DNA of 63,977 nt, counting the filler, from Reclinomonas americana ATCC 50394 (taxonomy: Eukaryota), in the NCBI GenBank assembly GCA_048213135.1. It is 16 parts of 11 records of this genome, joined end to end, with 100 filler letters (N's around TTAATTAATTAA, not from the genome) between each part and the next. Parts side by side here need not be neighbours in the genome. Positions count along the whole stretch, not along the records: positions 9,013 to 16,778 come from PS015863.1; 15 more parts are not named here. The stretch is one strand, 5' to 3'. Both the position numbers and the translations under genes were made by a program. Of this stretch, positions 635 through 47,900 are shown in pieces (positions within the stretch are counted from its first letter, which is position 1; each line of letters starts with the position of its first letter). The notes beneath the pieces were generated by a model that worked only from the letters and a program-made list of their open reading frames with translations, was not told the DNA's origin and made no database searches.

Positions 635-2321
635 CTCAAGCGTCGCAACTCCATTCGCCCACACCACCCCACCACCACAGTTGCTCCCCGAATTTCCAGT
701 GCCTTGAAGGTTGCTACCTCCTTTGCAGTTGCCAGAGGCACTATTTCCAATCGCATTGACATTCTGCAACACGTGTGCGCTACTTAGCACGGTCGGAAGC
801 CACACCATGACATCCCACTACGTTATCACAAACCTGCATTGCAACAGACGTGGACGAGGCAGATGACGCAAAGAGAGCCCACACAGCTCCACCGCCGGCT
901 TGCCGACCGCCGGTGGCACTAGCAATGGAACAGGCAGTCGATGGGCATTGAACACCACTGGCACTGTTGGTTATCGAGTTGCCCGCAAGGGAAGAGCCTT
1001 GGAAATCGACATGCAACGCGTTTTTGACAAAGATGCCACCGCCGCCCACGTTGGTGAAACCGTCAGCAGAATTTGTATCACCGTTTCCACATTGGAACAC
1101 CGTGTTGTTCGCCCACACGCCACCCACATCCGACAAAGTGGCCGACGTTGGGTCGGTCACATACACAGCACCGCCGCCAACGTTGCTGTTGGTGAGGTTC
1201 ATCGCCGTGTTGTTGACGAAATGGGTGCCGACTGTGTTGACGATCACCCCACCCGTTCCCGACACAAACACGGCACCACCACCCGCATTGCCTGACGACG
1301 TCGTCGTGTTGCCCGATCCGACAACCGAGTTGCTGGAGAACACGCTGTTTTGGAGGGAAACAGTGGCACCGGCGGCGATGTTGACCAACGACATGGCGGC
1401 TCCAGAGGCATCGTCACCGACCTTGGTGCAAGCGTGCCACGCCGAGCTTGTGACTTGAATGACCGAGAAGGGACCGGAGGCGAGCACGGCAGAGGACATC
1501 GTGCCACGTGCAGCAGCGCGATGGTCCATAAACAGTGTGTTGGTGATGGCGAGGGAGGCGGTGGAGGTGGCGGGTAGGGCAGTGGCATCCAGCCGCAGGG
1601 CGCCCGCCGTGGAGCCAGTGAACAAGCAGGAAGAGATGATGACTTGCGGCGACACGGTGGTGGCCAGGGCGCTCCACGAAACCGCCGGCTGACCGCCCGT
1701 CACAGTGAGGCCGGTCATCTCGAAACGCGGTGAGTCCTGGACGAGGATGGGAAACGCTGATGCTTGCAAGATGGGCGACGACGATGGCGATGTGGACTGG
1801 AGAGTGATGTTGCGACCTGCAAAATGGTGGTGTTAGATTCTTTGTTACCTGCCCGTCCCTTCATCTCCATACCCATGTAGTGTGGCTCTACAAGCTGTTC
1901 TCTGCCCCTTGTTCTCTTGGCTCCTAACCCTTGCTCTGTTGCTTGACCCGTCATCCGATCACCAGGGTACACACCTTGTGACCGGCATTGACGAAAGTCG
2001 AGAAGGGACCAACAGTGGTCGAAAGTGAGAGCGACACATATTCAAAGGTGGTGGTATCAACCAATAGGAGTCTCGAGTGTGCCTTCCAGGAGTTCAGACA
2101 CAATGTGTGCATGTGCGTGTGTGCATCATGTGCGCATGTATGCGTGTCTTTCTAATTCGCGTATCTCTTGGTTGCCAGTCACGCTGCTGTCTCATTTCGA
2201 GCGCGCACTTTCTCATTCTCTCGCTCTCTCTCTCTCTCTTCTCTCTCTTGTGTGCGGCTATGTGTGCGGGTGAGAGAGAGGGAGAGAATGAGCGGAGAGT
2301 GACAGGCGTCAAAGGAACACA

Positions 2322-6450: not shown

Positions 6451-6775
6451 GTTCCCTCTCTTCCGTACGTGCCTTTTTTTGCGGAGCAAGCATCGCTGAA
6501 TGTGTTTCTATGTATCAGATCTTCGTCTGCAGTCACTGCCGTCGTGGACATCCCACGCGCGTGTTGCACTCTGCTTCTCTCATCTCCTTGTTCCATATTC
6601 CTCCTCTGTCTCTCCCTCTCAATCTTGGTTGCCTCACCATCTCTCACGCTCAGATTCCACTCTCTCTCTCTCAGTCTCTCAGTCTCTCTCCCTCTTGTCT
6701 CCTTCTTCTCCCTTCCTTTCCCCTCTTTCTGCGCTGACTCCGAGCTCCTCAGTATCGCCGACCACCTCCAAGTCC

Positions 6776-7113
6776 ATGGCGGATTCGTACAACGCAATGG
6801 GTGTGGGTGCACGATACTTCTCCTTGCCCGTGTTTGGGAGGCCAGAGGCCGCCGCCTCCAAGATGCTGGCCACCTTCACCTCGGTACGTACGTGCTCAAG
6901 TGTTCGCTGCTGATATGTTGATATCTGACGAGGCGTGCAGGGTCCACTCGAGATGTTTTGAGACGGTGAAGCCATTCTGGCTGCATTCGCACTCGTGTCG
7001 CAGTTGTGGGCGAGGTGAGTGGGTGAGGGATTGATGGAAGGCTCATGGTGTCGGTACGAGCTTTCCAACATCGTCAAGCTGACTGGCAATTACATGATCA
7101 TTGGGTCCATGTA
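6776..7113 (+). pseudogene. Probable decayed coding sequence, weakly resembling an RPA70-type (DUF223-like) OB fold
   Basis: Exon MADSYNAM...LATFTS, intron GTACGT..GCAG, then GPLEMF*DGEAILAAFALVSQLWAR*VGEGLMEGSWCRYELSNIV with two in-frame TGA codons. The OB-fold resemblance is by eye only. Confidence 0.3.
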
Positions 7114-8136
7114 AGTGATTTCGGAAGGTGAGACTGTCAATCGAACCCTTTGCCTTTGCTGTCACCTTTTTTCTCCTACTCTTGCTTCGCTCTTCATGTG
7201 CCTTGCCCTTGCCATCGCGCTCACATGTTGACGTCGCACACATCCGTGACAATGATCTGTCGCCTTTTTCTCTTTCTGCTCACCATCACACTCCCTTGTC
7301 GCGCCCACATCCACCATCTTGGTCGGTTCCTTTTGCTTCTATGTTCCAGAACCCGCTCTGCCCTTGCCGTCACACTCGTCACACCTGTCGCCTTTCTCTC
7401 TCTCTGCTCCCATGTATACTATCCATTCCATCCCACATGTCGCCTTTCCTCTTGATGCGCTTCGTGTCATCGCACTTTCTTCTTCCCTTCACACAGCCAT
7501 GACCATGGCCGACGCCAATGGCCTCCATCGCGCTTCGATCATTGACACGGTGTTCACTGCGCCGGTGTTCCAGGGCTAGGCGGGGCGCATGACGCGGGAT
7601 CAGTTCAAGCCTCGTGTGGAGTGGTGATGGACGAGGAGTGCTGATTTCCCGTTGTGAAGTGCGGGGTTTGTGGCGCCCTGGGGTTGAAGGACGCGCGGTT
7701 GGTGAAGGAGTTGGAGGAGTAGGGGCGTGGAATATGGAGAAGTCAAGGCAGTGAGCAAGGGAGAAGAGTGGGGTAATGGAGAAGTGAGTTCGCTTCCTGT
7801 TTGCTGCGCAGTCAGATCCTGAGTTGGATTGGTCGGCAATCATCATGCAAGTGCGCGAATCGGTTGGTATTCCACCGATGGCTGAGGAGCTGCTACCGCG
7901 TTAGTGGGAGTGGGATGTTGATGGACGAGAATGAAGATCGCTCGTTGCGATGAAGTGAACGACTGAGGAAACAGTTTACTTTGTCATGAGACGGGGTACG
8001 AAGCAAGGAAGGAACATAAAGTTGCACTATGCGCGTGAACCCAAGGCAATCACAGTGCAATGAGGGCAACATATGGGAAGTGGGGTGATGCTGATATTCA
8101 CAATCCAGACCACCCGGTGCAATGGAAATTATTTAT

Positions 8137-8912: not shown

Positions 8913-9213
8913 NNNNNNNNNNNNNNNNNNNNNNNNNNNNNNNNNNNNNNNNNNNNTTAATTAATTAANNNNNNNNNNNNNNNNNNNNNNNNNNNNNNNN
9001 NNNNNNNNNNNNGAGAGAGAGAGAGAGAGATAAGAGAGAGAGAGAGAGAGAGAGAAAGGGATGAGAGAGAGAGCAAGAGATGAGAGAGAGCAAGAGATGA
9101 GCTGCTTGTCGGGCATTTCATCGTGTCCTTGTCGCGAACGCCATCACCTCGAGCTCTTGGAGTCTCGTGCTCTCCTCCCGCTCTCCTCACCATTCATGGC
9201 CTCTTTCGCTCAG

Positions 9214-12200
9214 TTCCACCCACCGCCATTCGCGCCAACTGCGCATTGGCGGCCATCGCCTCGCCCTTCGCGGCGGTGGCTGCGGAGCCTCGCGCCCTGT
9301 CCACTCTGCCGATGTGCCACCGGCCTTGAACTACGCTGTGCCACCTGTTTCCGTCCAACCCGTGGCGGCGGCGATTGTGGAACCAGCAGTGGCACCAGCA
9401 GTCTCTCGCATGTCGCCTCTGCAGGTAAAGATTCAAGCTCTTCACGAGGCCAACACCATGAAGACCGTGCTCGAGCTCCCGCTGGCCAACGATCCGAGCA
9501 ACCTCTCCACCCTGGAATGCCTCGTTTCGTTGAATTTGGGAAGGAAAGAATGTGGGTGAAGCCTCTCGTCTGACACGCTCTCCTCCCCCAGGTTCCTCTG
9601 TGGGCCAACCAGACCACAGCTGAGGCTGACTCGGCGGGCGGTCGTGCCACTGCGCAGCTGGCCGACGACATGTTGGTCAAGTTTGTCAGTCGCGAGAAGC
9701 CTACGGATAAGGTACGGCGGTGGACGCTCAGAATGCGCAGGCCTCTTCTGCGTCTTTCTCCATTCTTAACGTACCTTTTCCTCTGTTTTCATCTTCATCG
9801 CTCCCTCTTTCATGTGCCCTCATTTGCAGTTTCTCTCTCTCTCTCTTTTCGTCGCCCATCTCTTTCCAGTTCCTATTTTCTCTCCCTCTCTACTCTCTTC
9901 TATCTCTTATCTCAGTCTCTTCTCTCCCTTTATCTTTCTCTCCTTATTTTCTCTCATTTCTCTCACCTCCCTCTCTTCTCCCTTCTCTCTCCCTTCTCTC
10001 TCACTATCTCTTTCTCTCTCCATTCTCTTCTCCTTCTCTCTCCCTTCTCTCTCCCTTCTCTCTCCCTTCTCTCTCCCTTTTCTCTCCCTTTTCTCTCCCT
10101 TCTCTCTCTCTCTTCTCTCCCCACTCTCTCCCTTCTTTCCCCCTTATCTCTCCCTTCTTTCCCCCTTATCTCTCCCTTCTCTCTCCCTTCTCTCTCTCTT
10201 CTCTCTCCTCTTTCCCCTTACTCTCTCCTTCTCTCTCCTCTCTCTCCTTCTCTCTCCTTCTCTCTCCTTCTCTCTCCTTCTCGTCTCCTTACTGTCTCTT
10301 CTCTTCCNNNNNNNNNNNNNNNNNNNNNNNNNNNNNNNNNNNNNNNNNNNNNNNNNNNNNNNNNNNNNNNNNNNNNNNNNNNNNNNNNNNNNNNNNNNNN
10401 NNNNNNNNNNNNNNNNNNNNNNNNNNNNNNNNNNNNNNNNNNNNNNNNNNNNNNNNNNNNNNNNNNNNNNNNNNNNNNNNNNNNNNNNNNNNNNCTTCGA
10501 CGCATCGGCACCGTTGTGCTGGTGCTCGACGGAGTATGACGAGTGCAGTAAAGCTGCTGTACGGCCAAAGGCGGGATGTACGGTACAGCAGCTTCTTTCC
10601 CCCTTACTCTCTCCCTTCTCTCTCCCTTCTCTCTCTCTTCTCTCTCCCTTCTTTCCCCCTTACTCTCTCCCTTCTCTCTCCCTTCTCTCTCCCTTCTCTC
10701 TCCCTTCTCTCTCCCTTCTCTCTCCCTTCTCTCTCCCTTCTCTTCTCCTTCTCTCTCCCTTGTCTCTCGGTTGTCTCTCCCTTTCTCTCCCTTTTCTCTC
10801 CCTTTTCTCTCCCTTTTCTCTCCCTTCTCTCTCCTCTTCTCTCTCCTCTTCTCTCCCTTCTCTCTCCCTTCTCTCTCCCATTTCTCTCTCCCTATCTCCT
10901 TCTCTCTATCTCTGTTGTTTGCTCCACCTTTCCCTTCTCCCTTCACCCACATCTCTGTCTCTCTTTGTCGTTGGTCGTTTCCTCACCGCCTACTTGTGCC
11001 CCGTTCCACTGTCTTTGATTGCACATGTCTGTCGCTGATCTCGCCTGCGTCCTTCTCATGTACTGCGCTTCAGCTAATGCGTGGACTCTCTTCCAGTCAA
11101 CACCTATGCTGTCTGTGACCTTCCTCTCCAAGTTGTGGGCATGTTTGATGTTTGCATCCTCGTGCGACACTGTGCAATTCCCTTGTGCGCGATGTGTCGT
11201 TCGTCCTCTTCGTCGCTCAGCACTCGCTGGCCATTGTGTGCTTCGCTGAATCACTGCCTTACGGAATGTATGTGTGATCAGGTGCTGGTGGTCGCTGGAT
11301 GGTCGGGCGGTGGCAAGTCCGTGCTGCTGCGCCAGCTCACCACTCGCCTGCATGCGCGCAACGACACGCTGGTGTTGTCGGCTCGTCTTCCCGCCATTCC
11401 TCGTGAAGAAGTGCTGCGCAAGCCCGGAGCGCTGCTGCCTTACCTTCTGCACGAGGCCAACGAGGCCGTGGATGACACGAAGTTGCAGGTGACAGAGGAT
11501 GAGGTGAGTATGTTTGTGGTTGGTTGGCATTCAGATTCGTGGTGGTTTGTGTGGAGCTGGGAGCATGATGTTGAATCTCGAGAAGTTTGCTTGCATGTAT
11601 GTGTCCCTGCACATGCATCTTTCTCTCTCTGTCTACTCACGCATTTCACTTCCTAGTTTTCTCACTCGACATCCAGTCTCCTTTGCTCCTTATCTCTCTA
11701 TGTGGAGTCATCTACCTTGCTCTTTCCCGGATACCGTCACTTTTGCACATTGTTTTTCTATTGTGACTGTGCATGCTCCACCGCTCTCCCCATTTTCTCT
11801 TTGTCTCGCTTTAGGTTGCTCGGTCTCGTTCTCTTTCACATTTTTATCTCTCCCAAAGGTACTGTTTCTGGTCGCTGTGTCCTTTCTCTCCTCCTCTGTT
11901 GAGAATACACTTTCTCTCACTCAGTCTTCTTTCCCCAATGCGCTCCTCTATCGTTCTTGCAAGCATCCCCCTCTCTCATAGTTGCTCTCTCTCCCAGTCT
12001 CTCCCAGTCTCTCTTTCAGTCTCTCTCTCTTTCTCCGTCTCTTTCTCTCTCTCGGCCTCTCTTTCTCAGTCTCACTCTCTCCGTCTTTTTCTCTCTTATG
12101 GTGCGTCTCTCTCTCCCTCCGCCACCACTCGCTTTCTCACTATTTCTGTCAGCGTGTATCTCTTCACATTGATGGTTTCTATGCACGCTCTGTTCCCACT

Positions 12201-15200
12201 TGCCTCACAGTTGTCACACCACACAGCTTCGACGCATCGGCACCGTTGTGCTGGTGCTCGACGGATATGACGAGTGCAGTAAGGCACCCGGCAACTTGTT
12301 TGTCAACCACGAACTCGATGTTGCGTTGCCATGCCAAGTGGTGTGATATGCACACATGCAGTGGAGTGAATCGACTCACTCAATCGCGTAGAGTTGGCCC
12401 AATGTGCTGCTGGTGGTGTCGGTGCGACGCGAGTTCATCAGCCGCCTCGGCAGCTTCTGGGCTGAAGAGCACTTTGTGCCTGTGGACCCGAAGCTGTCGC
12501 GCGCCGAGCGGCTTCGTCAGTCGGAGCGTACGCTTGTACGATGTATGCTGCGTCTGTTCTCCAAGGACGACATTGATCTCTTCTTGCACAAGTTGAGTGC
12601 CACCGCTGCTCTGCCCTAGGCCTGCTTGTTCACTTGGATTACACATTCATTTTTTGTGTGAGCAGGTTTGTGGAGTCACGAGCGGATCACCCTCGCTCAT
12701 GGGAGCAGTACAAGCAGCAGATCGAGCGCACGCCGGGATTGGATGGACTGGCTTCGTCGGTGAGTCGTTGGTGATGGAAGGAAACAGAGTGCGCAATGAT
12801 ATCGACGCGAAGAGTGTTGTACGAGAGCGACAAGAAAAGTGACAGCGCAACAAAAGAATTTCACATGTGCATGCAGTGGCGGCGGTGGTGCTCACTTTCC
12901 TCCTTTTCCTCACTTTCCATAACAGCCCCTGATGTTGAATATGATTGTTCTGGTGATGGAAGATCTGGAACGGATGCAGCACCGCCATGACGGCGCTGGC
13001 GGTGGTACTGCACTCTCCACGAATCGCGTGACTCGTGCACGGTTGTATGAGGCGTTTGCCAAACACAAACTGCGCTGGGAGTTTGAGCATCACCGAGTGC
13101 ACATTCGTCAGGTGTGCCGTTGGCGGTTGTGGATCACAGTGTGGAATACATGCCTTCTCACACAAATCATTCTTGCACAGTTGTATGGCGACGAAGAATC
13201 GGAAGAGGATTTCTGTCTGCGAGTGTGGGATTTTTGCTCGGAGCTTGCTGGAGAGATGATGCAACACTCGTTGGTATCTGTGCGGCAGGGAAAGCTTGAG
13301 GTCTGTACGTTCAACATGAGAATTGTGCTACAATTCCCGTTCCATCTGCGTTTCTTAGCTCACTCTCCTTCATTCATCACAGCACACTCAACAAGCTGTC
13401 GCGGAGCAGCATGTGTGGAACAAGTGGTTTGATCGTGATGATCCGCTGCAGAACTCCCTCGCTCGTGCTGTTGCGTCGTCATAATGTTCCCTCTCTCATG
13501 GCGATGCATTCCCTGCGTTCACATTCGAGATGCAACACAGGCATTGTTGAAGTGGAGTCGACTTGGAGCATCGCAGCAGCGTGTGGAGTTCATGCACAAA
13601 TCGGTGCTGGAGTACTTTGCCGCTCAGTCGTGGCTGGCCGATGTGCGGTTGTTGGCCGATGAGGAGGTGGAGTTGGAGGTGAGGATTGTCGTGCTTCTCT
13701 GATCATTCATCCTGCATGATTGTCAACCTACCTCGGAGCAGGATCGGCTCGACAGACTATGCGCCAGCTTCACTGGCCAGCGGACACTGCTCACATCGGA
13801 TGAAGTGAGTGCATCCTTTCCATCATTCACTCTCGCGACATGCGCTCATCCCTTCTTCGCTGGCTGCAGGGACTTAATTCCATCCTGTCGTTCGTCGCCG
13901 AGCAAGTGCGGGCTGATCCCTCTCTCCATGACGTACTGTGGAAGGCGATTGCTCTTTCACGCACGGAGGAAAGAGTCGCTTCCCTTTCATCGAGTGCGGC
14001 AAGTACACTGTGTCTCGCGGAGGTGTCGTTCAGTGGGCGCGATATGTCGGGTGTACGACTACCCGGTGCGGATTTAAGAGATGCAGTGATGCACAGGACG
14101 GTGTGGAGGGGAGCGGATATGCGAGGGGTGAATGTGTGCTCGGCCTTTGCGAGAGAGGCGGATTTCACGGGGGCGGATATGACGGGTATGAAGTGGCCGA
14201 GAAAACCAATGGTTGGGCATACTGGAGGGGTGAGTGCGGTTGCCGTAACTTCTGATGGCCAGTATGCCGTGAGCGGTAGCGAGGACAGCACGATTCAAGT
14301 GTGGTCGGTGGCAACTGGCGAGGAGGTTCGCCGGCTGGAAGGCCACACAGATGCGGTGAATGCAGTGGCAGTTACACACGATGGCCAGCGTATTGTGAGT
14401 GGCAGTGATGACATGACTGTACGGGTGTGGTCTGTGGCAAGTGGTGAGGAAGTGTGCCGACTGAAAGGCCACACAGAGTCGGTGAATGCAGTGGCAGTGA
14501 CACCCGACGGCCAGCACGTTGTGAGTGGCAGTGAGGACAAGACTGTACGGGTGTGGTCGGTGGCAAGTGACGAGGAGGTGCGCCGACTGGAAGGCCACAC
14601 TGATTGTGTACGGGCTGTGGCAGTGACACCCGATGGCCAGCACATTGTGAGTGGCAGTGATGACAGGACTATACGGGTATGGTCACTTGCAAGTGGCGAG
14701 GAGGTGCGCCGACTGGAAGGCCACCCTCGTGAAGTCAATGCAGTGGCAGTGACACCCGATGGCCAGCACATTGTAAGTGGCAGTGATGACAAGACTGTAC
14801 GGGTATGGTCACTTGCAAGTGGCGAGGAGGTGCGCCGACTGGAAGGCCACCCTAGTGAAGTCAATGCAGTGGCAGTGACACCCGATGGCCACTTCGTTGT
14901 GAGTGGCAATTATGACAAGACTGTACGAATGTGGTCGGTGGCAAGTGGTGAGGAGGTACGCCGACTGGAAGGCCACACGGATGCAGTGTTTGCAGTGGCA
15001 GTGACACCCGACGGTCAGCACGTTGTGAGTGGTTGTGATGATATGACTGTACGAGTGTGGTCGGTGGCAAGTGGCGAAGAAGTGCGCCGACTGAAAGGCC
15101 ACACGATGTCGGTGTCTGCAGTGGCAGTGACACCTGACGGTCACCACACTGTGAGTGGCAGTGAGGACAAGACTGTACGGGTAAGGTCGGTGACAAGCGG

Positions 15201-16125
15201 CGAGGATGTGCGCCGACTGGAAGGCCACACGGGTGAGGTGAACGCAGTGGCAGTGACACCCGATGGCCAGCTCGTTGTGAGTGGCAGTTGGGACGGAACT
15301 GTGCGAGTATGGTCGCTGGCAAGCGGTGATGAGGTGCGCCGACTGGAAGGCCACACGAGTGGGCCGATTGCAGTGGCAGTGACACCCGATGGCCAGCACA
15401 TTGTAAGTGGCAGTTGGGACAAGACTGTACGGGTGTGGTCGGTGGCAAGTGGCGAGGAGGTGCGCCGACTGGAAGGCCATGCGGGTTATGTGCGGGCTGT
15501 GGCAGTGACACCCGATGGCCAGCACGTTGTGAGTGGCAGTGATGACATGACTGTACGGGTGTGGTCAAGGGCAAGTGGCGAGCAGGTGCGCCGACTGGAA
15601 GGTCACTCGGAGTGGGTGATGGCAGTGGCAGTGACCGCCGATGGTCAGCACATTGTGAGTGGCAGTGCAGATAAGACTGCACGGGTGTGGTCGGTTGCCA
15701 GTGGCGAGGAGGTGCGCCGACTGGAAGGCCACACGCGCGCGGTGCTGGCAGTGACAGTGACACCCGATGGTCAGCACATTGTGAGTGGCAGTGCAGATAA
15801 GACTGCACGGGTGTGGTCGGTTGCCAGTGGCGAGGAGGTGCGCCGACTCGAAGGCCACACGGGATGGGTTTCTGCAGTGGCAGTGACACCCGATGGGCAG
15901 CACATTGTGAGTGGCAGTCGAGACAAGACTGTACGAGTGTGGTCGATGTCGAGTGACGAAGGTGTGCGAGGGCTGGAAGGCCACACGGATGGGATGTGTA
16001 CAGAGGTAGATGGACAGCGTGTTCTTCCAAGATGGAAGGACACACCACTTGCACACCGCAACGGAGAGCTACTCCTGCGCATTCTCGGCTCCTTCCTGCC
16101 TGATTTCACCGGCGTGATTTTGTAA
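9214..16125 (+). CDS. STAND/NACHT NTPase - pentapeptide repeats - 14x WD40 (NWD/NLR-like receptor); start codon unresolved
   Basis: Spliced exons give Walker A VLVVAGWSGGGKS (exon from 11282), Walker B TVVLVLDGYDEC (~12227-12319), LASSPLMLNMIVLV, the winged-helix motif EFMHKSVLEYFAA (~13585-13625), pentapeptide repeats FSGRDMSGVRLPGADLRDA...ADFTGADMTGM and 14 WD40 repeats, ending at TAA 16125. Confidence 0.9.
10495..10552 (+). pseudogene. Frameshifted, misplaced duplicate of the Walker B exon of the NACHT gene
   Basis: CTTCGACGCATCGGCACCGTTGTGCTGGTGCTCGACGGAGTATGACGAGTGCAGTAA matches 12227-12282 except for a 1-nt insertion (GGAGTATG vs GGATATG). It lies upstream of the Walker A exon. Confidence 0.7.
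14209..15972 (+). repeat. Coding tandem array of 14 x 126-nt WD40 units with high nucleotide identity
   Basis: 42-aa unit LEGHxxxVxAVAVTPDGQHxVSGSxDxTVRVWSVASGEEVRR repeated 14 times without introns or indels. Confidence 0.97.
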
Positions 16126-16878
16126 CAAGACAAACGGGAGCTCGTCTGGCAACCCTTAAATGTCCGCCGACTTACGGATTATGCAGGCACGCGTGGACCC
16201 TTATCCTGTCGTGCATGCAATATGCGCCAAGCCGAACTATGTGCTCGGCGTTAACAATGTGCAAAATGACCTCAGCGATCGGACGAATCACAGTACAGGT
16301 TGTTTGTCGTCGCCGCTGGCTGCGTCTATTTCTGATGCAGATGATCTTTGGTCCAGCTGCACCCCGGTCAAGGGTTTCGTGTCGTATTCTTCATGGCGAA
16401 GAGATGCCCTCAGTTACCTGAGATATTCGTCGAGAGTACACTCGTCGAGTTCCTGAAGTACATGTACTCCGTTGTTGGCTGGTGAGAGATGTATCTTCGA
16501 TGCAAGAGATGTCGCTGTATTCTAACGAGTTCACCTGCGCAGCGGATAGCGAAGATCACATACCGCAGCATCTCCATGCAGCACCTGTCCATCACTTGGC
16601 GCAGCTGGTTGCTCTCCATGCCCATCTTCTTCGGCGACGTTCGGTGTGCACATGGGAAAAGGGAAGGGAGGGGGGAAAGGAAGGGATAAGTGGAGAAGGA
16701 GGAGACGGGAGGGGAGGAAAAGGGAATGGAGACGTGAGGAGAAGAGAAGCGAGGGGAAGGGAAGGGAGGAGAGGAGAANNNNNNNNNNNNNNNNNNNNNN
16801 NNNNNNNNNNNNNNNNNNNNNNTTAATTAATTAANNNNNNNNNNNNNNNNNNNNNNNNNNNNNNNNNNNNNNNNNNNN

Positions 16879-18975
16879 CCGCGTCGGTTTGTCCGGACAA
16901 GTAGTGGTGCTGACTGTGCCAGTGGCCTCGTTCCCCTTTGCCACGCCGTCATTTACACTGTTCAAGAACGCCGACTGCCGCGGAAATGTGGCCACCATTA
17001 TCAGCGGCTACAACATCGCGTCTGATGGCACGACCTATACCATCACATGGACATTCGACACGACTGGAGAGCCAACACCAACGAAGCAGCAGTTGTGCAC
17101 GTGCCTGTCATCCACTGACCTGGCAGGCTACTTCAGCATGGCGTCTGTATCCATTTGTTGCGTGAATGCGGAAGATTTTTTGCTGTCAAGTTTACTTCTT
17201 TTTCTTCTAACGAGGCGACCGTGCAGATCGTGTCAAGAGCACATCGGCGCCGTCCATATCCCAGGGCATCAAGTCGCAAACTGTTGTTTTGTCGGGTGGT
17301 GACTTCCCGTTGCTGGCTACAAGTGCCGCCAATGGCAGTAATCCAGTCATACCTGGCGGCACACCACTGGCATTCTTCCTGTCACTCGCCACTGACTGTT
17401 CGTCGATGGACTTGCGGGCGGCTGCCTTTGTGTGGTCACTGCTGTGTCGCCGACGCGTATTACGGCTACGGTTTCCACCATTTCTGCGGTCTCTCTCGCC
17501 TCATGTACGCTGGATCCGCCTGGCACGTATCAGATTTGTGGTCGGTGTGTTACGGAGGGAAAGAGGGAAGGGAGGGGAGGGAGAAAGAGAGAGGGAGGAG
17601 GGGGAGGGTGGGAAGGGGAAAGGGTGGAACGACGGTGAAGAAAGAGAGACAGGGGAGAGAGAGCAGTACCGTTGAGAGAGATACGCGTGAGGGGAAATGG
17701 TGATAGAGAAAGGGCGTGAGAGTGGATGGTGTGGGGCAGAAAGAACAAAGCAGTGGGTACCGGGAGGAGAGATGAAGGAAAGCGGGAGAGGCAGGTGCGC
17801 CACGAAGTATATTGTCTGTATGTGCGAGAGACATGGTAGGATGTGACCGAGAGGGTAGCTGCGAGAGGCAAGAGGGCTGAGGAGCAATAGGGAAAATGAG
17901 AGTGAGAGGCTGCAGATGAGCCACGTATTTGTGAGAGATATGTGAGGATGTGAACAAGAGGGCGGTTGCGAGAGGCAAGAGGGCTGAGGAGCAGTAGGAA
18001 AATAATTTACGGGCTGCTGGTGAGCCACGTATGTGCGAGAGAAATGGTAGGATGTGAATGAGATCTAGAGGGTAGCTGCGAGAGGCAAGAGGACAAAAAA
18101 GCAACAGGAGAANNNNNNNNNNNNNNNNNNNNNNNNNNNNNNNNNNNNNNNNNNNNTTAATTAATTAANNNNNNNNNNNNNNNNNNNNNNNNNNNNNNNN
18201 NNNNNNNNNNNNGAATGTGAATGAGAGGGAAGCTGCGAGAGGCAAGAGGGCTGAGGAACAGTAGGCAACTGACAGTGAGAGATTGCGTGCGCGAATGAAT
18301 GGGACTTTTTGTCATTCTCTTTCATGTTCAACGAGAAAAGTGGAAGGATGGAGAGCATGCAATCTAATGGCGCTTCACCACCATCGACTATTCCACTGAC
18401 AAAATATCTGCGCACAGCTTCCAAGACGGCTCATATGTGCCTCTCGGTGTGCAATTGACCATCACCCCCGTCACCGACCCCGATGTTGGCTTCATTTCTC
18501 CAAAGTCGTTGCCTCTCGGTGTGCCAACTACGTTGATGTTGCATTCGCCATCACGCACGCTGTCGAATTGTACTCGTTTCAAGGTGGTCGACGCTGGGTC
18601 CGACTGCAATGGTCCGGCTTCGGGTGAGTGCTGAAAATGAGAAGATTTTGCGCGGGCGGTGGGTGGAGGAGATCTGTACTCACGGTTCACCCTCTTTGTA
18701 TATCTCTCTCTCTCGTCAGCGGCCCTTGCGCTTACGGCCTTCCAAGACGGCGTGTTTGATGCGTCATCATGCTTCTATGGATCTGTTGCTGGCGGCTGTG
18801 GACAGTTCAAGGTGCAGCTCACGAGCTCCAAGGCGGTGTATGCCACATTCTGTGTGGCAACCACTCCAGGGGCGACGTACAAGGCGGTGTCGAACAGCGA
18901 CATTCGTGTTACCTCGGGTATGCTGGTGCAGACGTCGTCGGTGGTGGCCAACCAGGCGGGGACAATCGTTGCGTG
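16879..18975 (+). CDS. Exons of an extracellular Cys/Thr/Ser-rich beta-sandwich repeat protein (partial; apparent frameshift near 17430)
   Basis: Coding-like blocks 16879-17146, 17227-17540, 18418-18623 and 18720-18975 with a recurring pattern (FTLFKNADCRG, FFLSLATDCSS, FKVVDAGSDCNG) and plausible splice sites. Confidence 0.5.
17785..18260 (+). repeat. Degenerate ~110-120 nt intronic tandem repeat (core GCTGCGAGAGGCAAGAGGGCTGAGGA)
   Basis: Core recurs at ~17858, 17966, 18075 and 18232. Confidence 0.75.
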
Positions 18976-31407: not shown

Positions 31408-34400
31408 ATGAGCGACGGAGGGCCACCCGAGTCACCGACTGGGCAGTCATCGCCGTCGGCTGCCACTGCTGCATGTTGCGTGCACGGATCGCTGTTACAC
31501 ACACACACGCGCGCGCCATGGTTTGCACACGCTCACACTCTCACGCGCGCGCGCACACACACAGTGCGACAGTACTTGCTGAGCTTGCTGTGGGAGCACG
31601 CGACTGCGTTGATCGTGGCGAACAGTGAGGCCGCACAGGCGGTGCATTCGCAGCGACGAAAGTCGTCGTCATCGGGAGGCAGTGTGACAAGTGCGGCAGC
31701 GGGCAGTGCTGCGGCTGCTGCTGCGGCGGCAAGTGTGTTGCGACTGGGTGAGGATGATGAGGGCACGCAGTGGCCGCTGGTTTCGTTGCGTTGGTGGTGT
31801 TGATAAGATTTGCCAGCGCGGGCCCGCTGCCTTCGCCTGGGCTCATTCATTGGTGTGTTGTTCGTTCGTCGCAGCATGTTGCGTGTGATTGAGAGTGAGT
31901 GGACGGGCGGTGGTGAGCAGTCGGTGGCGGCGGCGGCGGCGCGGTGTGCGCAGAGTGTGCAGGGCAAGGCGAGGGAACTGGATCAGACCTGTTGCGTGTG
32001 TCGAGTTGTGTTGTGGCATGCGCGTGGTGTGTTGACACGCTGCGGTGCAGTGGATGTCACGCGGCATGCGGTGACGAGGTTAGAGAAGGAGCTGGAGGGC
32101 ATGCGACAGCAGCTGCGGGAGCTGGAGACACGAGTTGCGCTTTTTTTGATCCGTGCCTGGTGGAAGAAATTGGAGTCGTGACGACGCAGCGTGTGCGCAG
32201 CGGTCGTCGTTGAGACATGTCGAAGAGTTTCTGTCGTTTCTCAACAAGCGGTTATCGTCGGAGGAGATTCGCGACCACGTGCAATGCCTGGGCGACGAGT
32301 CGATTCAGTGGCAGATCAGGTGCGTGTGTGAATGTTGGCGGCCACAATCACCACCCATGCACCTGCTCACCACCCCTCCCGCTTGACAGACTGAGTGAGC
32401 TGTTTTGGCTGGCGGAGAATCACCGCTCTGTCGACACGGTGCTGGTGGCGGAGGCTCTCGGCTACCTGTACCGCATGGTGGTGTTGTCGGATTTGGCCAA
32501 TGTGACGCTGTCGTCTTCGGCGAGTGTGCAATCGTCGTCGCCGCCGTCGCAACTCAAGGGCAGTGCGCTGCTGGCATGCGATCCGCTGATTCTATGGCAG
32601 CACGCCGTCAGCAGTGTTCTCAGCATGCTGGCCGCCAGCCGTCCCGACACGCAGCACATGCTGTTGAGTGTGTTGCGGCAACTGCTGCGCAATGCCGAGT
32701 TGAGACGATTCTTCTGGGTGCGCGAGGAGCAGGCGACAAGTGAGACCGCGACGATGCAAGGTGGTGACGGCGTTGGTGCGGCGCCAACGGGTTCGTTTAT
32801 CGCGCGTCTGGTGCGTCTGCTGCACTCGATCAACGACGATGTCAAGATTGAGGGTCTGTCTGCACGCCTCCTCGTTTGTCATGAGTTGCCGAGAGCTCAC
32901 TGAAGGCATTGACAGCCGCACATGTGCTGGGCGATTTGTGCGACTCGACGACTGCCAAGCAGCACTGCTCACAGGCGGGTGCTGTGGCACCATTACTGAC
33001 GGGTGCACGATCGTCCAATACCATGGTGCAAGAGAAGTGTCTGGCCGCGCTGTGGAATCTCTGCTCACTGCCGGAGAACATGGTCAGTACGTGTGTGTAT
33101 CCTCGCCACATGCCCCTCCCCTCCTCCTGTTCACGTTTCGTGGACGCGATGCAGGACGCTGTGCGGGAGATGGGCGGCCTCGACATTTTAGTGCGCTGCG
33201 TGAACTCCAAGTCCGAGGATGTCGTCGAGAATGCCACCATTGCGCTCGGCTACCTTTCGCGAAACGACACTAATAAGGTATGTGTGTATGTGTATGTGTG
33301 GTGTTTGGGGAGGGGAAGGTTGCGACCTCTGACGCGACTCAAAAATTCTCAATGGTTGTCGGTGTAGGTGGTGCTGCGAGAGAACGGTGGCCTGTCGGCG
33401 TTGGTGGGCGTGCTGACCACGGCCATTCTCGGCTTGGATCCGGACGAGGACGGTCGTGGTCCGCGAGTGTCGGAGCCTCTCTCGCCCAGTGTGGTCAGCA
33501 AGGCAGCGGCTGCGCTGTGGAACTGTGCTTCGGTGCCGGAGAATCGCATCACCATTCGCGATGTGGGCGGCCTGCATGCGTTGCTGGCGTTGCTGAGTCA
33601 ATCGTCGTTGCGTGAACTCACTCTGCTCTCCCCCCTTTGTCGACGCCATTCCAAAGTGTGCGCCACCCACAGTGATCCTGCACTTCTCGAGAATGTTACC
33701 GGTGCGTTGTGGAACTTGGTCGTCGACAATCCAAACAAGCAACTCGTACGGTGTGTGCATGCACGCCTTTTTTGTTGTTGGCCTCCACATTCGTGTTTCT
33801 CACCATGACGGCGTATCTCCAGAGAACTCGGTGCCATCCCCGTGTTGGTGGGTCTGCTGCACACCGACAATGTGCCGCTGCTGGAAAACGTGTCTGGCAT
33901 TTTGTGGAACTGTGCATCGGTCGGTGAAAACCGCATCGCCATTCGCAAGGCACAAGGCCTCGCCCCGCTCTTGCACGTGGTTGAGTATGGAACCTCGTGG
34001 AATGCGCGTGAGAATGCGGCTGGTGCGTTGCGCAACTGTGTCATCAACGACACAAACAAGGCGGCGTTTCAACAAGTCGGCGGGTCTGTTTGCATACCAT
34101 TGCTCTTATACGATGTGTAGGTTGTTGACGAAGAATCGCGTGATGTGCGCAGCATTGATGTGGTGTGCCGATTATTGCAAGCAGAGGGCAAGTCGGCGCC
34201 TGCAGGCTTTGTGGAGAAGCTGGTCGGCATCTTGTGGATGGTGTCGATTGCGCAGGAGAACCGCTTGCCGATTGGAGCTGCCGGTGGTGTTCGCATTCTC
34301 CTCGACGTGCTGGCACAGCGTGCGACGAACGACAAGGTGCTGGGCACGCTGCGAAACTGCTGCTCCGAAGGTCTTGCTTTGGTGTGTCTTCTTCGTTTCG

Positions 34401-40303: not shown

Positions 40304-42408
40304 TTACAACATGGCGGTGGGTCGAATCTCGGCCACCGGCATATTTAGGCACTGCCACACCACGAAGGATAATCGATCGACAAGGTGTGAGTCTCTTTGT
40401 CGACGGACCTGGGAGGGACAACACGAACACACACGGACCTCTTCTCGCAATGAACGGTACATGACCGTGCTGAGATCTGTGAAGGGGTTGCGCGTGTTGG
40501 TGAGAGAATGGCGGCGCGCGGGGCAATGGACAGAGAGGCATGCGCGCAACATCGCTCGCCAAACGACGGCACAATGCAGCAGATCAGCTTTCCGGCGTTC
40601 TCCGGTCGATTCGCCACCTCGATCGCGCACTTCACCTGCAGCGAGCGACCAGTCTCAGCCGAGTGTGCCACTGAACGGGAGAGAGAGAGGGCAAGTAACA
40701 GACCGCAGCGCCTGCTGAAATACCCACAAACAGGCCCTCCTCCTTGGCCATTCGGCGAGACATTTGCATGGCTGCGGCAAAAAGATAAGGAAGAAGAGGA
40801 AGATGAACAAATGAGGTGGAGAGGGTAAACGAGAGCAAGCACACCATCTTCCGAGCTGCACGTCATGATCTCGTCCACCACGTCAGCGTCGTACACGTCG
40901 GGAATGAATCCGGCGCCTGTGCCCACAATGTCAATGACGATGCACGCTCACGCGAGTCAGTGCACCAGCGAGCGTACCAATGCCCTCGATAAAATGCTTG
41001 CCGGGAGGCTTGCCTGCTCCAATGATGAGATGAAAGCTCGAGTATGAGCAACTGCAGCACGACGTACCACTGAGCACGGCACTCTCGCTCGGCTCCACGC
41101 CAATGACACGAATGTCGGGGTTCTGTTTCTTGAGGAAGCCGCCGACGCCGCTGACCGTGCCGCCAGTGCCGACTGCTGACACGAAAATGTCGATCTTGCC
41201 CTGCGCAAGCCACGTCAGTTGAGAGCAAAGGTGTGCATTGCCACAGGCCGCTACGCTCACCTCCGTTTGCTCCCAGATCTGCGAATGAGGAGGAGAGCCG
41301 TGAGAAACAGAACAGATGAAGTGCAATCGGAGCTATTCACACGCACCTCTGGGCCAGTGGTGGTCTCGTGAGCACCAGGATTCGCCTGCAGCCACCATCA
41401 GTGCGCACAGCACAGCGACAACAACAACAACCACGTCGGAGAAACAAAACGCACTGGATTCCGGAACTGCTGCGGCATGAACGCATCTAGCGTGGAGCGG
41501 AGAATCTCCTCGGCCTTGGCCAGCGACCCTCGCATGCCGTACTCGGTAGCTGGCCACACAATCAGCAATCTCCCCACCTTCTCCACCTGCACCTCCTATT
41601 GCGCACGCAACGAGTGAGTACAACCTCGGCTCCGAACGCACGCAGCAGCATGCGCTTCTCCAGCGCCACACTCTGCGGCATGGCTGCACATGCAATGAGT
41701 CAGCGCATCGCTCACAAGAGGGCGAACGAGCGTGGACGCACTGACGATCAGCTTGTAACCCCGAGCGGCGGCCACTGCGGAAAGAAACGAAGATCCGACG
41801 AATTATTAACCGGGGGTCGAGGCAATGCATTGACACAGCACAGACACACACACAACGCAACCAAAGGCAAGCCCAATGCCCGTGTTGCTGCAGACACACA
41901 GAGAGAGAGAAGAAGGAGAGTGTGCGTGAGAGAGAGAAATGAGAGAGAGTGAGAAGTTTTCTCTCGCACCCCGATGTCGGCTCCACAAGAGTCGTTTTCC
42001 CGCGAGTGATCAAGCCTGCACGCTCTGCCTCGTCCACCATGTTCTTTGCAGTGCGATCTGCAGTGCATGTCACCACACACAATCGGAGAGAGCGAGAAGA
42101 AAAGAGAGAGAGAGAAGAGAGAGAGATGCACACCTTTCACCGATGAACACGGCTGTGTGTGTGTGCATGGACACAGAGAGAGAGAGACATGAGGGAGAGC
42201 ATGTGTGAGTGCACTGCAGCACACAGTGACTCTTGCATCATGCATGCATGGACACAACCTCCATGCTTTCCATCTTGCAGGCGACCTTGGCCACTGCACC
42301 AGCGGTGAGGCGGTTGAGGTACACCATAGGCGTGTTGCCGACGAGCTCCGTGGCATCATTCGCAATGTATGTCGAGGGTGCAACCGCGGATACAGCGCGT
42401 GCGCTCAT
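40304..42408 (-). CDS. cysK: Cysteine synthase (O-acetylserine thiol-lyase, CysK/OAS-TL type), 16 exons
   Basis: [18 protein letters not shown] (PLP lysine), [59 protein letters not shown] and PSFGERYLST. Complete spliced ORF. Confidence 0.97.
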
Positions 42409-44921: not shown

Positions 44922-47900
44922 ATGGCCTCCGACAGTGGTCATGTGGTGGAGGAACGTCTCATGCCCGGACTCGTGCGACTCCGCCGCATAAAACGGTCTT
45001 TTTTCTGTCGAAAAACTCCTTGTCTCTCTCCTCTCTCACTCGCACACATACAGACACGATCGCAGTCGCAGTAACGCAACCGGCACCTCTGCGGGCTCCG
45101 CAGTGCACGTGTGGGTTCGTGTCGCAGTGACCACTTTTGTTGTGTTTTGTGTGTGTGTGTGTGTGTGTTGACGGTTCACACAGGAGGCCGAATCGCTGGC
45201 CGCCTTTCCCGTCACTCTGCGCCTCGACTTTTCGCAATGCCGCAACCTGTCGGTCAACCGCACGTCGTGTGCCGCACCACTCACTGTGCACCTGCCCGCG
45301 GGCGCACTGATTGTGGCGGCCGAGTTGCGGGCGATCAGTAGGCAGGCGGCCACCGTGTTTCACTTGGCTGTCGACTGTCGACCTATGCTGCCGCTGGCAC
45401 TGGAGCGCGTCGGTGGTGGCAATGGCGAGGGAGTCACCACGACGACGACTGCTGGTGGTGAAGGAGAAGTCGATCTGCAGCGTCTGTTTGACATGTCGGT
45501 GGCGTCGCACAAGCGGGCTGCACGTCGTGTGCTCTCGTCGCTTGCGGTGGCGCACATGCCACTGGATGCGCTGCGTGAGGCGGTGCTCTCGGATATGAAT
45601 GGCTTCCCGTTCTTTGATTTGGAGTTTCCGCCGCAGCTGGCGTCGGTGGGTGGCAAGTGGGCGGCGGAGCAGCGGCGAGTCGATGGGGCCAGTGGTGCCA
45701 CGTCTGCAGTGGGCGTCGATCAGGACGCGGTGGTGCTCGACGATGCCGCTCGGGTGTACTGGAGGAGGTGAGTGAAGGAGGACGGGGGCGGTCATGCATG
45801 GCGACAAATGCTCACCGTGGTGGATGCACAGACCGTGGCACCTGATTGGACGACCAAAGCTGGATCACGCCGTGCGCAGCGACAGCATTGTGCTGTTCCA
45901 GTCGCACGGGCCTCTGCTGGCCGATGCCGTGCACGGGAGGACGTCGGCGTTTTTGGTGCGTGAGAGGTCGTGCCGTGGTCGCCGACGGGAGAGCACGCTC
46001 ACTTTCTTCCTCGTGCATCAGTTTGCGGTGGCCACCCTGGTGGACCGACCAGCGCTGCTGCAGCGCATATTTTTGACACGACATGTTGACGACGCGGGCG
46101 TGTACAGGGTACGTTTCTGCGCTCATGAGTGATGCCTGCGTGGCAATTGTGGCTAACGCACTTTGTGCTCCCGCAGCTGGCTCTCGTCGACAATGGTGTG
46201 TGGCGGTGTTTTACGGTGGATGATTACATTCCTTGTTATCGGAGTGGAGAGATGGTGTTTACGGAGCCGCCAGCGAGTGGCGCGTTGTGGGTGTTGCTGT
46301 TGGAAAAGTGAGTGTTGTCTCGTTTGGCCAGTGTGATGTGCATTGCGGCTGGTGATTAATCACTCTGCTTGTCGTCACTGCAGAGCTCTGGCCAAGCTGT
46401 TTGGCTCCTATGCCAAGGTATGTGATGCGCTCTTGTGGAGGTCACGCCGCTGCATTGTCGCTGACAATCCCTGCACAGCTGCACGAGGCCTCGGTGGTGG
46501 ACATTCTGCGAGCGCTCACTGGCCTCCCGGTGGATGAGCTCGAAATCCGCAATGCGACCGTGGGCGACGACGAAGCCACCAAGAGAATATGGAAGACCTT
46601 GCGCAGTGTCGCCGACAGCAAGGACTTTGGCACTGGTGCGCTGTGGACGTGCTTTTGCGATAAGGTTTTCTCCTCTTCCTCCTCATGCATGTGCTTCTCT
46701 TTCGTTTGTTGTGCAGCCATCACACGCGACGCACAAGCGCGTTCACGACGAACGGCCGGTGCATCGGCTGGCAGTCCGGTGCTGGAGAGTGCGTACGGTC
46801 TGGTATGCGGACGACCGTACATGGTTCTGGGTGCGTTTCACGAGTGCGGCACACGTCTGGTGCTCATGCGCAACCCGACTGGTGAAGTCAACTGGTGCGT
46901 CGTGTTGTGTTGTGTGCACGCCGCCCCCGTGAATTTCGTCTCTTGTGTCGCTCACTGTGGTGGTTGTAGGAGGGGCGACTGGTCGCACCGCTCGCACAGG
47001 TGTGATTGCTATTGGTTGACGTGCTGCTGCATGGACTTGTCTCACCTGTGTTGCAGATGGACAGCGCAGTCGCGATCCAAGTTTCGCGAAGCCGACGAGA
47101 AACGGGGCGAGTGGTACATGAGTTTTGCGGATTTCGTCAAGTACTTTGCGCACTGTGCCATCTGTCGGTTTGTTTGCTTGTGCATGGTGTGCGCAGATTC
47201 TGTCATCTCACATACCGCTTCTTTTGTTTGGATTGTAGTTACCGCGATTGGTCGGAAGCGCGCGTAAAAGGCACCTTTACTCTCATGCACCCGGGCAGCG
47301 GGCTCAGCACGCCGGTCACCACCACATCGTACACTCTCAATGTGATGCAGCGCAGCCACGTGGTGGTCTCCATGACGCAATTCGACAGCAGTCAGCCAGC
47401 TGTCGACGCCGGTGTGCTGGTGTTGCGCAAGGGAGACGCGCCGGGCGGACAGCTGACGGTGGTGGCCGAGTCGGGTTTGCGCCGGGCACACGATGCTGCG
47501 CCGGTGGAGGCGATTCTGGAGCCCGGAGCGTACCTCGTGGTTCCCATGTTGCGTGCACGCTCTCGTCTGGTGCTCACCCCACCTTCTCACAAGCGGGGTG
47601 CAGAACTACTGGCTGCCTACTCGGTTCGCGAACATCGAGCGAGGACGATGGAGACGGGGAACCGGCGGCACTGCGTCGCAAGGGCGGAGAGAGTCTGGCG
47701 AGGAGGGCAATAGCCGCGGCTCAGGTACTGCTGTAGTTTTATGTGTGCGTGTGTGTTTTGAGACTGAAGCATGATGCAATCACGCAGGAGATATTCTGGA
47801 CGGCGGACGCCGATAGCAACGAGCAGCTGACGGAACAAGAGTTGGCGACGTTACGAACGCTGTTGGCTGAACGCGGTGGTTCCATGTGCTCGCGCCTGNN

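Follow-up and report, generated by a model that had tools for sequence, protein, structure and literature searches.

NOD-like receptors (NLRs) that combine an ATPase with repeats of high internal conservation (HIC) are already known in fungi, animals, plants, bacteria and archaea (PMC4986451, PMC13449251). In Podospora, positive selection has been described at codons 7, 9, 25 and 27 of the WD40 unit, around conserved codons 8 and 26 (PMC1805685), and sharing of NACHT-pentapeptide-WD40 NLRs between fungi and Mycoavidus has been noted (PMC9815663). The genome described here offers a large and tractable receptor family for studying pathogen and non-self recognition in protists. The window, the whole stretch of DNA analysed, comprises 63,977 nucleotides in 16 joined parts of the Reclinomonas americana ATCC 50394 genome (GCA_048213135.1). 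The focal gene lies on the plus strand of the part from PS015863.1 (window positions 9,013 to 16,778) and runs from an LRGG/GCGASR motif (the slash marks the candidate cut) through a NACHT ATPase, pentapeptide repeats and a WD40 array to a 50-aa tail. The array is the C-terminal WD40 domain of this NACHT-pentapeptide-WD40 gene and probably does the ligand sensing in an immune or non-self receptor of NLR-like type. Variation falls mainly on a few residues predicted to face the ligand, within near-identical units that dozens of genes share, which makes such a receptor the likely identity. By analogy, its diversification is likely to resemble that of the fungal self/non-self receptors.

The array consists of 14 WD40 units of 126 nt, in frame and gap-free at 14209..15972 (+). 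Tandem Repeats Finder reports a period of 126, 13.4 copies and a score of 2069 at 14299-15991, and Pfam WD40 matches 14 stretches of the exon. That exon, the last of the gene (13870-16125, 2,256 nt), has an open frame. The original prediction, made from the sequence alone, of 14 units of 126 nt in a single exon of ~2.25 kb was therefore borne out, and every residue that it listed, whether after GH, in V-x or in SGS-x-D-x, is present. The variable codons of each unit are 6, 7, 9, 25 and 27, with 6, 7, 7, 6 and 5 distinct residues, respectively, over the 14 units. Describing the scaffold as nearly invariant was an overstatement: 15 of 42 columns are invariant across the focal units, and units 2-14 have a mean identity of 82% in nucleotides (range 74-91%) and 77% in amino acids. 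Identity between unit 1 and the other units is 63-70%, and Arg replaces the WD tryptophan in unit 8. When the array is checked as an NWD-type HIC sensor, its best 100-aa window stands at exactly 85%. Private variants common to neighbouring units, also part of that prediction, are found as TCACTTGCAAGT in units 4 and 5, CACCCT at the opening of units 5 and 6, and SADKTAR in units 12 and 13. Two exact one-unit-lag tracts underlie them, one of 56 nt starting at 14672 and one of 85 nt starting at 15638.

Selection was assessed across the family, which was sampled in stretches around matched places in the genome. This sample, a part of the family, holds 88 arrays of at least five units and 984 units, 981 of them distinct, which fall into a tight type A (n=698) and a looser type B (n=286), with many arrays combining the two types as mosaics. 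Units of type A were retained when they lacked a stop and agreed with the type consensus at 100 or more of 126 places (586 of 698), and a custom test modelled on fixed effects likelihood was run on 250 of these, with codon numbering matched to PMC1805685 through its text and strand positions. Positive selection was found at codons 7 (p 3e-8), 9 (0.001), 25 (0.003) and 27 (6e-5), while codons 8 and 26 were purifying, the pattern expected of an NWD-type HIC sensor. Codon 6 was positive only under a shared synonymous rate. Without a tree, nonsynonymous diversity (piN) at codons 7, 9, 25 and 27 is 0.58 versus a synonymous diversity (piS) of 0.28 in the scaffold, a ratio of 2.07 (1.58-2.55), and the 586 units carry 530 residue combinations at the variable sites. 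When five disjoint subsets of 110 units were used, codon 7 was significant (p<0.05) in all five and the joint omega was 1.4-2.0 in each; omega exceeded 1 in none of 18 neutral simulations. Family-level positive selection is thus robust at codon 7, moderate at codons 9 and 25, and weak at codon 27.

Structure prediction would place this diversity on one side of the fold. AlphaFold2 (AF2), run on the last exon, gave a mean predicted local distance difference test score (pLDDT) of 78 and a predicted template modelling score (pTM) of 0.46, with four strands per unit. Codons 6-7 lie in the d-a loop, codon 9 at the start of strand a, and codons 25-27 in the b-c turn, a region that PMC1805685 describes as the top-face platform of the propeller. 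Based on these strand assignments and that description, the 14 units are predicted to fold as two 7-bladed propellers with the variable residues on the binding faces, in agreement with the original prediction. The other loop codons (15-18 and 35-38) have a piN of only 0.03-0.15, so diversity is limited to the top-face positions. The best Foldseek matches are two-propeller proteins, for example 2ymu and Apaf-1.

The units belong to a large family. A 401-nt query has at least 216 matches in the genome (40 of 1,647 candidates scored), and a 32-nt motif has 223 matches versus 0 for the control. Three gene layouts carry such arrays. Clade A genes are single long open reading frames (ORFs), near-intronless, with a head containing an invariant RxxxxH followed by NACHT, pentapeptide repeats and WD40. 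Clade B comprises intron-rich NLR-like genes and includes the focal gene, for whose Walker A exon the genome holds 46 matches, ~28 of them at 66% or more. Class C genes consist of a short first exon, 7 units and a tail, with no NACHT in view. Intact arrays peak at 14 units (30 of 55 non-stand-alone arrays) or at 7 (14 of 23 stand-alone arrays), and the stand-alone genes draw on the unit pool of the NLR-like genes. Stand-alone 7-unit genes whose first exon is 4 codons long and whose tail is conserved are found at L053, L060, L062, L071, L082-L085, L087-L089, L091 and L136. Clade B has about ten introns across NACHT, a region without introns in clade A. Arrays at L036, L066, L099 and L107 have frameshifts or stops, with units still near consensus, and are likely pseudogenes or assembly errors. 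Contigs C630 and C20 were considered as intronless family members and rejected because their matches are split.

Unit distances point to exchange within and between these loci. Between-locus scaffold distances of type-A units are 0.128 (A-A), 0.140 (A-B), 0.152 (B-B), 0.135 (A-C) and 0.145 (B-C). Units are therefore as close across gene classes as within them, despite clades A and B being only 35-38% identical outside the array (~36% in the NACHT region), which points to one shared unit pool. For instance, the nearest neighbours of 78 clade B units fall in clade A (45.8), class C (8.2), clade B (7.6) and unclassified arrays (16.4), and the within-array distance (0.126) is barely under the between-locus distance (0.130). 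In the closest paralogue, L061, identity to the focal gene is 93-100% over the exons, 88-98% over the short introns and 93% over the tail, with a synonymous divergence (dS) of 0.086 in the NACHT exons. Its units 2-14 nevertheless show no positional match to the focal array (same-position distance 0.09-0.16 versus 0.127 off-position), and of the 56 variable residues 45 are different. The positional correspondence of units has been lost between paralogues with ~95% identical flanks. Similarly, the 5' NACHT exons of L103 are 95-99% identical to the focal gene, yet L103 carries type-B units at a distance of 0.30, and the clade A locus L031 has a tail 95% and downstream DNA 94% identical to those of the focal gene. 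Near-identical unit pairs lie within one locus in 13 of 17 cases, 7 of these being adjacent. Neighbouring units are more alike than in 1000 of 1000 permutations, and linkage inside the unit falls with distance (p 0.008). The distance results fit unequal crossing-over together with inter-locus conversion, the concerted evolution within and between loci that marks NWD-type HIC sensors. For the recombination-diversified non-self or pathogen receptor originally predicted, repeat shuffling and selection were thus both found at family level; the receptor function itself is what we infer.

The NACHT region upstream of the array had gone unmentioned in that prediction. Splicing through GT-AG introns gives a predicted model with an open frame of 1,193 aa from 9592, preceded by one further exon ending at 9523, and supports the claim of an intronless array exon in an otherwise intron-dense gene. 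The first recognisable coding exon (9266..9523, +, in part) encodes LRGG/GCGASR, with its Gly at 9278, together with a linker rich in Pro and Ala and a conserved short segment; it is kept across paralogues and has a donor GT after 9523. A predicted pre-NACHT exon (9592..9711, +; GT-AG model) is 100% identical in L061 and L105. The predicted Walker A exon (11282..11503, +) encodes GWSGGGKS at 11297 and on its own matches Pfam NACHT under the cut-off (E 0.014), and the predicted Walker B exon (12227..12319, +) encodes VLVLDGYDE at 12248. Seven further predicted exons at 12392..13804 (+) cover the rest of NACHT and the helical domains (12392-12591, 12666-12759, 12926-13111, 13181-13300, 13383-13469, 13541-13678 and 13742-13804); their introns are all GT-AG and 63-166 nt long, the frame stays open, and the least certain junction of the model is 13469/13541. 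The start of the last exon (13870..14208, +) encodes a helical segment and pentapeptide repeats (~14029-14193), read from the translation and modelled by AF2 with low confidence. Beyond the array, a degenerate 15th half unit and the C-terminal tail (15973..16125, +) carry the family-wide motif LLxRIxGSFLPDF and the stop codon. A frame-shifted partial copy of the Walker B exon (10495..10552, +) is intronic, directly after an N gap, and is either a local duplication or an assembly artefact.

The focal gene is 31-34% identical over ~550 aa to single-ORF paralogues, and all four of those scanned exceed the Pfam cut-offs for NACHT and for pentapeptide repeats (PF00805). An ATPase with Walker A and B motifs (11297 and 12248) and homology to paralogues over the NACHT cut-off, followed by 14 WD40 units as C-terminal superstructure-forming repeats, gives the gene the make-up of an NLR-like signal transduction ATPase with numerous domains (STAND). 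Compared with 8 paralogues, the pre-array exons have a ratio of nonsynonymous to synonymous divergence (dN/dS) of 0.12-0.18 and no stops in 8 of 8. The NACHT part is under purifying selection, and the focal gene therefore looks functional.

The termini of the family hint at how such proteins might be anchored. When LRGG/GC was searched for without constraining what follows it, 24 distinct loci proved to carry the motif, and after GG/G all 24 have Ser at +5 and Arg or Lys at +6; a DNA pattern for the motif has 16 genome matches versus 0. LRGG is the C-terminus of ubiquitin, and G-C-x-x-S-R fits dual acylation. Cleavage would, if the motif is read in this way, unmask a membrane anchor. CaaX-like ends occur on nine arrays, at L043, L051, L063, L092, L093 (two), L094, L097 and L098. 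None of these has LRGG/GC in the stretches fetched, a hint that CaaX-like ends may serve as alternative membrane anchors. The LLxRIxGSFLPDF-type tail presumably resembles the first helix of an F-box or BC-box. Co-folding of a 38-aa tail with a stand-in SKP1 from another source reached 0.23 versus a mark of 0.34, evidence neither way. The clade A head (~200 aa, e.g. L034:1138-1950), in which the R and H of RxxxxH are invariant in 12 of 12, is a lead for a HEPN domain only: HEPN leads in Atlas (0.83-0.85), and HEPN_Swt1 matches two clade A ORFs under the cut-off. Other searches on this head were uninformative, with a model pLDDT of 44, nothing in Foldseek at E<=0.001, a best VIA-align Z of 5.3 on helical hairpins, and 0 relatives in a profile search of 1.84 billion representatives. 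A HEPN_DZIP3 search returned 0 matches, its control being likewise silent.

Care must be taken with this reading of the gene as a diversifying NLR-like receptor, as several points weigh against it. An enzymatic effector was not recognised in the focal gene, and 9200-9520 matches no Pfam family at E<=10, N-terminal effector domains included; the contig starts at window 9013, and upstream exons are possible. The 5' end of the gene model is partial, with no start codon assigned. LRGG is exact in only 16 of the 24 motif loci, and no ubiquitin fold was found upstream of it. The focal 14 units alone have no significant site when synonymous rates are site-specific (joint omega 1.0-1.4), so the predicted diversifying selection at the Podospora positions stands for the family and not for this array by itself. 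In the subsets of 110, codon 25 was significant in 3 of 5, codon 9 in 2 of 5 and codon 27 in 0 of 5. Marginal support (p 0.037) also fell on codon 34, which is not among the Podospora sites, and neutral simulations under free recombination produced 5 false positive sites in 36. Fourfold-site diversity is raised at the variable codons (0.31-0.60 versus 0.26), and codon bias could be depressing scaffold piS. Finally, the whole array of L105 is an N gap. Together with the gappy assembly, this indicates that assembly can fail on arrays, and the unit order of the focal array is provisional.

Some of these points would be expected under recent amplification with relaxed constraint, in which exposed loop residues drift neutrally, structure holds the scaffold, and recognition plays no part. 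The non-significance of the focal array, the unreplicated codon 27, the raised fourfold diversity and the smaller piN/piS ratio of type-B units (1.27) all lean in this direction. However, drift sits poorly with a piN twice the scaffold piS, with the behaviour of codon 7 and of omega in subsets and simulations, and with loop codons of low diversity away from the top face, and we regard it as a decidedly unlikely account. The fourfold diversity, about twice the scaffold mean at codons 6, 9, 25 and 27, would also suit a targeted local hypermutation like that of diversity-generating retroelements or deaminases. This is extremely improbable, given site synonymous rates at 7, 9, 25 and 27 of 1.0, 1.4, 2.0 and 0.5 versus a shared 1.0, the conserved flanking codons 8 and 26, and the occurrence of all four bases at first and second positions of the variable codons. 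Alternatively, the assembled array could be a short-read mosaic of several paralogues. The assembly has 16,441 contigs, exact tracts run to 85 nt within the array and to 71 nt when it is compared with other loci, PMC12222747 reports that Illumina assemblies fail on such domains, and in L105, where a deletion of the WD array was considered and rejected, the N gap takes the place of the array. Yet no two focal units are identical (maximum 91%), distinct units are the rule in the sample, the frame is open and the unit number is the modal 14, no sister array occurs among 84 others (best mean distance 0.077), and mis-joining is unable to create codon variety, all of which leaves a mosaic very unlikely. 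Diversified binding could also serve a role other than NLR-type defence, such as kin or mating recognition, or ubiquitin-ligase adaptors acting through the shared C-terminal helix motif. Stand-alone propellers without NACHT that share the unit pool and a related tail, the missing enzymatic effector, and the presumed F-box or BC-box likeness of the tail would suit such a role. Against it stand the tails, which have no Pfam family at E<=10 in 8 of 8 scanned, the conserved NACHT, and the largest subfamily with its invariant RxxxxH head, suggestive of a toxic nuclease; we consider a non-defence role unlikely.

If the gene is an NLR-like receptor, a mechanism can be outlined. Through unequal crossing-over inside arrays and gene conversion from locus to locus, the scaffold would be homogenised and units reshuffled, with selection retaining novel residues on the binding face. 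A bound ligand would set the NACHT switch free, so that the protein could oligomerise. With no enzymatic effector of its own, the focal gene product would signal via partners, possibly the subfamily with HEPN-like heads. A ubiquitin-type protease might cut after LRGG, exposing an N-terminus of the myristoylation/palmitoylation type that would tether the protein to the membrane. More speculatively, and with considerable doubt, the whole might form a combinatorial recognition system in a unicellular eukaryote: interchangeable blades from one genome-wide pool would be shuffled among sensor NLRs that lack an effector and are held at membranes by a lipid anchor exposed on cleavage (LRGG/GC) or by a CaaX tail, NLRs with a HEPN nuclease, and stand-alone propellers that serve as decoys or adaptors, and the system might diversify even during clonal growth.

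The surroundings of the gene include a spliced fragment with in-frame stops at window 6750-7560 (+), presumably of a hydroxyacid dehydrogenase. The region reappears at 91% identity in L135, beside paralogue L105, which indicates that the duplicated block extends upstream; its exons were considered as the N-terminus of the focal gene and rejected for their stops. Ser/Thr-rich stretches resembling surface proteins are encoded at 16879-17550, which recurs beside paralogues L105 and L038, and at 783-1832 (-), which has no Pfam match. Elsewhere in the window, Pfam identifies Armadillo repeats, a calpain fragment, and Myb plus DIRP (LIN-9-like) at 32885-33364, 46356-47264 and 54959-56901 (+), and 41336-42136 (-) contains what we take to be a cysteine-synthase-like motif. 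In the genome (G000), C1 and C2 are megabase contigs with uninterrupted EF-G and HtpG genes and are probably co-assembled bacteria. One HSP90 exon of the assembly has best matches at 61-78% identity among the 120 proteins listed, the named ones being from haptophytes, plants and fish; this fits a protist, though with such contigs present the exon may belong to a different organism.

Among known systems, the array resembles 2ymu, titled a highly repetitive propeller and 42% identical by phmmer, and, like Apaf-1, 2ymu is a two-propeller WD40 structure. Apaf-1 differs in that it is a single NB-ARC gene whose blades are divergent and which has a CARD, and it is not known to draw on a repeat pool. 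The nearest relatives of the NACHT region (best 120 of 147) are NACHT-pentapeptide-WD40 proteins that come from Mortierellaceae, from metagenome entries and from a few eukaryotes in EukProt, 23-32% identical with E down to 6e-52. These have the same domain order, whereas their N-termini are Arm-like, TIR or kinase, and 0 of the 120 matches listed have an LRGGGC-like motif in the first 500 aa. A literature search, judged mostly on titles and the starts of abstracts, found no protist HIC NACHT-WD40 family and no LRGG-masked acylation in an NLR. LRGG/GC suggests a possible way to unmask a membrane anchor on an NLR. On HIC NLRs generally, the text of PMC4986451 and PMC13449251 names no protist example that combines selection at individual sites with exchange between loci, and Fig. 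8 and the supplements of the latter may include protists. The label HNWD-like holds for the sensor only: no HET domain was matched by Pfam in the scanned part of the ~125 aa recognisable before NACHT, nor in the clade A heads, so the sensor would work like that of a fungal NWD gene and the focal gene is not an HNWD. Unlike Podospora HNWD, it also has a pentapeptide segment before the array, the LRGG/GC N-terminus and a non-fungal host. There are 14 canonical units here versus 11 plus cryptic blades there, and at least 88 arrays were sampled here versus ~10 genes and 69 units, as far as PMC1805685 and PMC12222747 describe them; the unit pool here is also common to stand-alone propellers. Like HET-D, HET-E as well as HET-R of P. 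anserina, the gene combines NACHT with 126-bp WD40 units of high identity (PMC1805685, PMC12222747), with the same selected codons around the same conserved ones, exchange within and between loci, and a predicted double propeller. The same diversification scheme thus appears in a lineage far from Podospora, where units are several times more numerous and are shared across protein layouts, and the loci given here provide concrete starting points for work on protist receptors.

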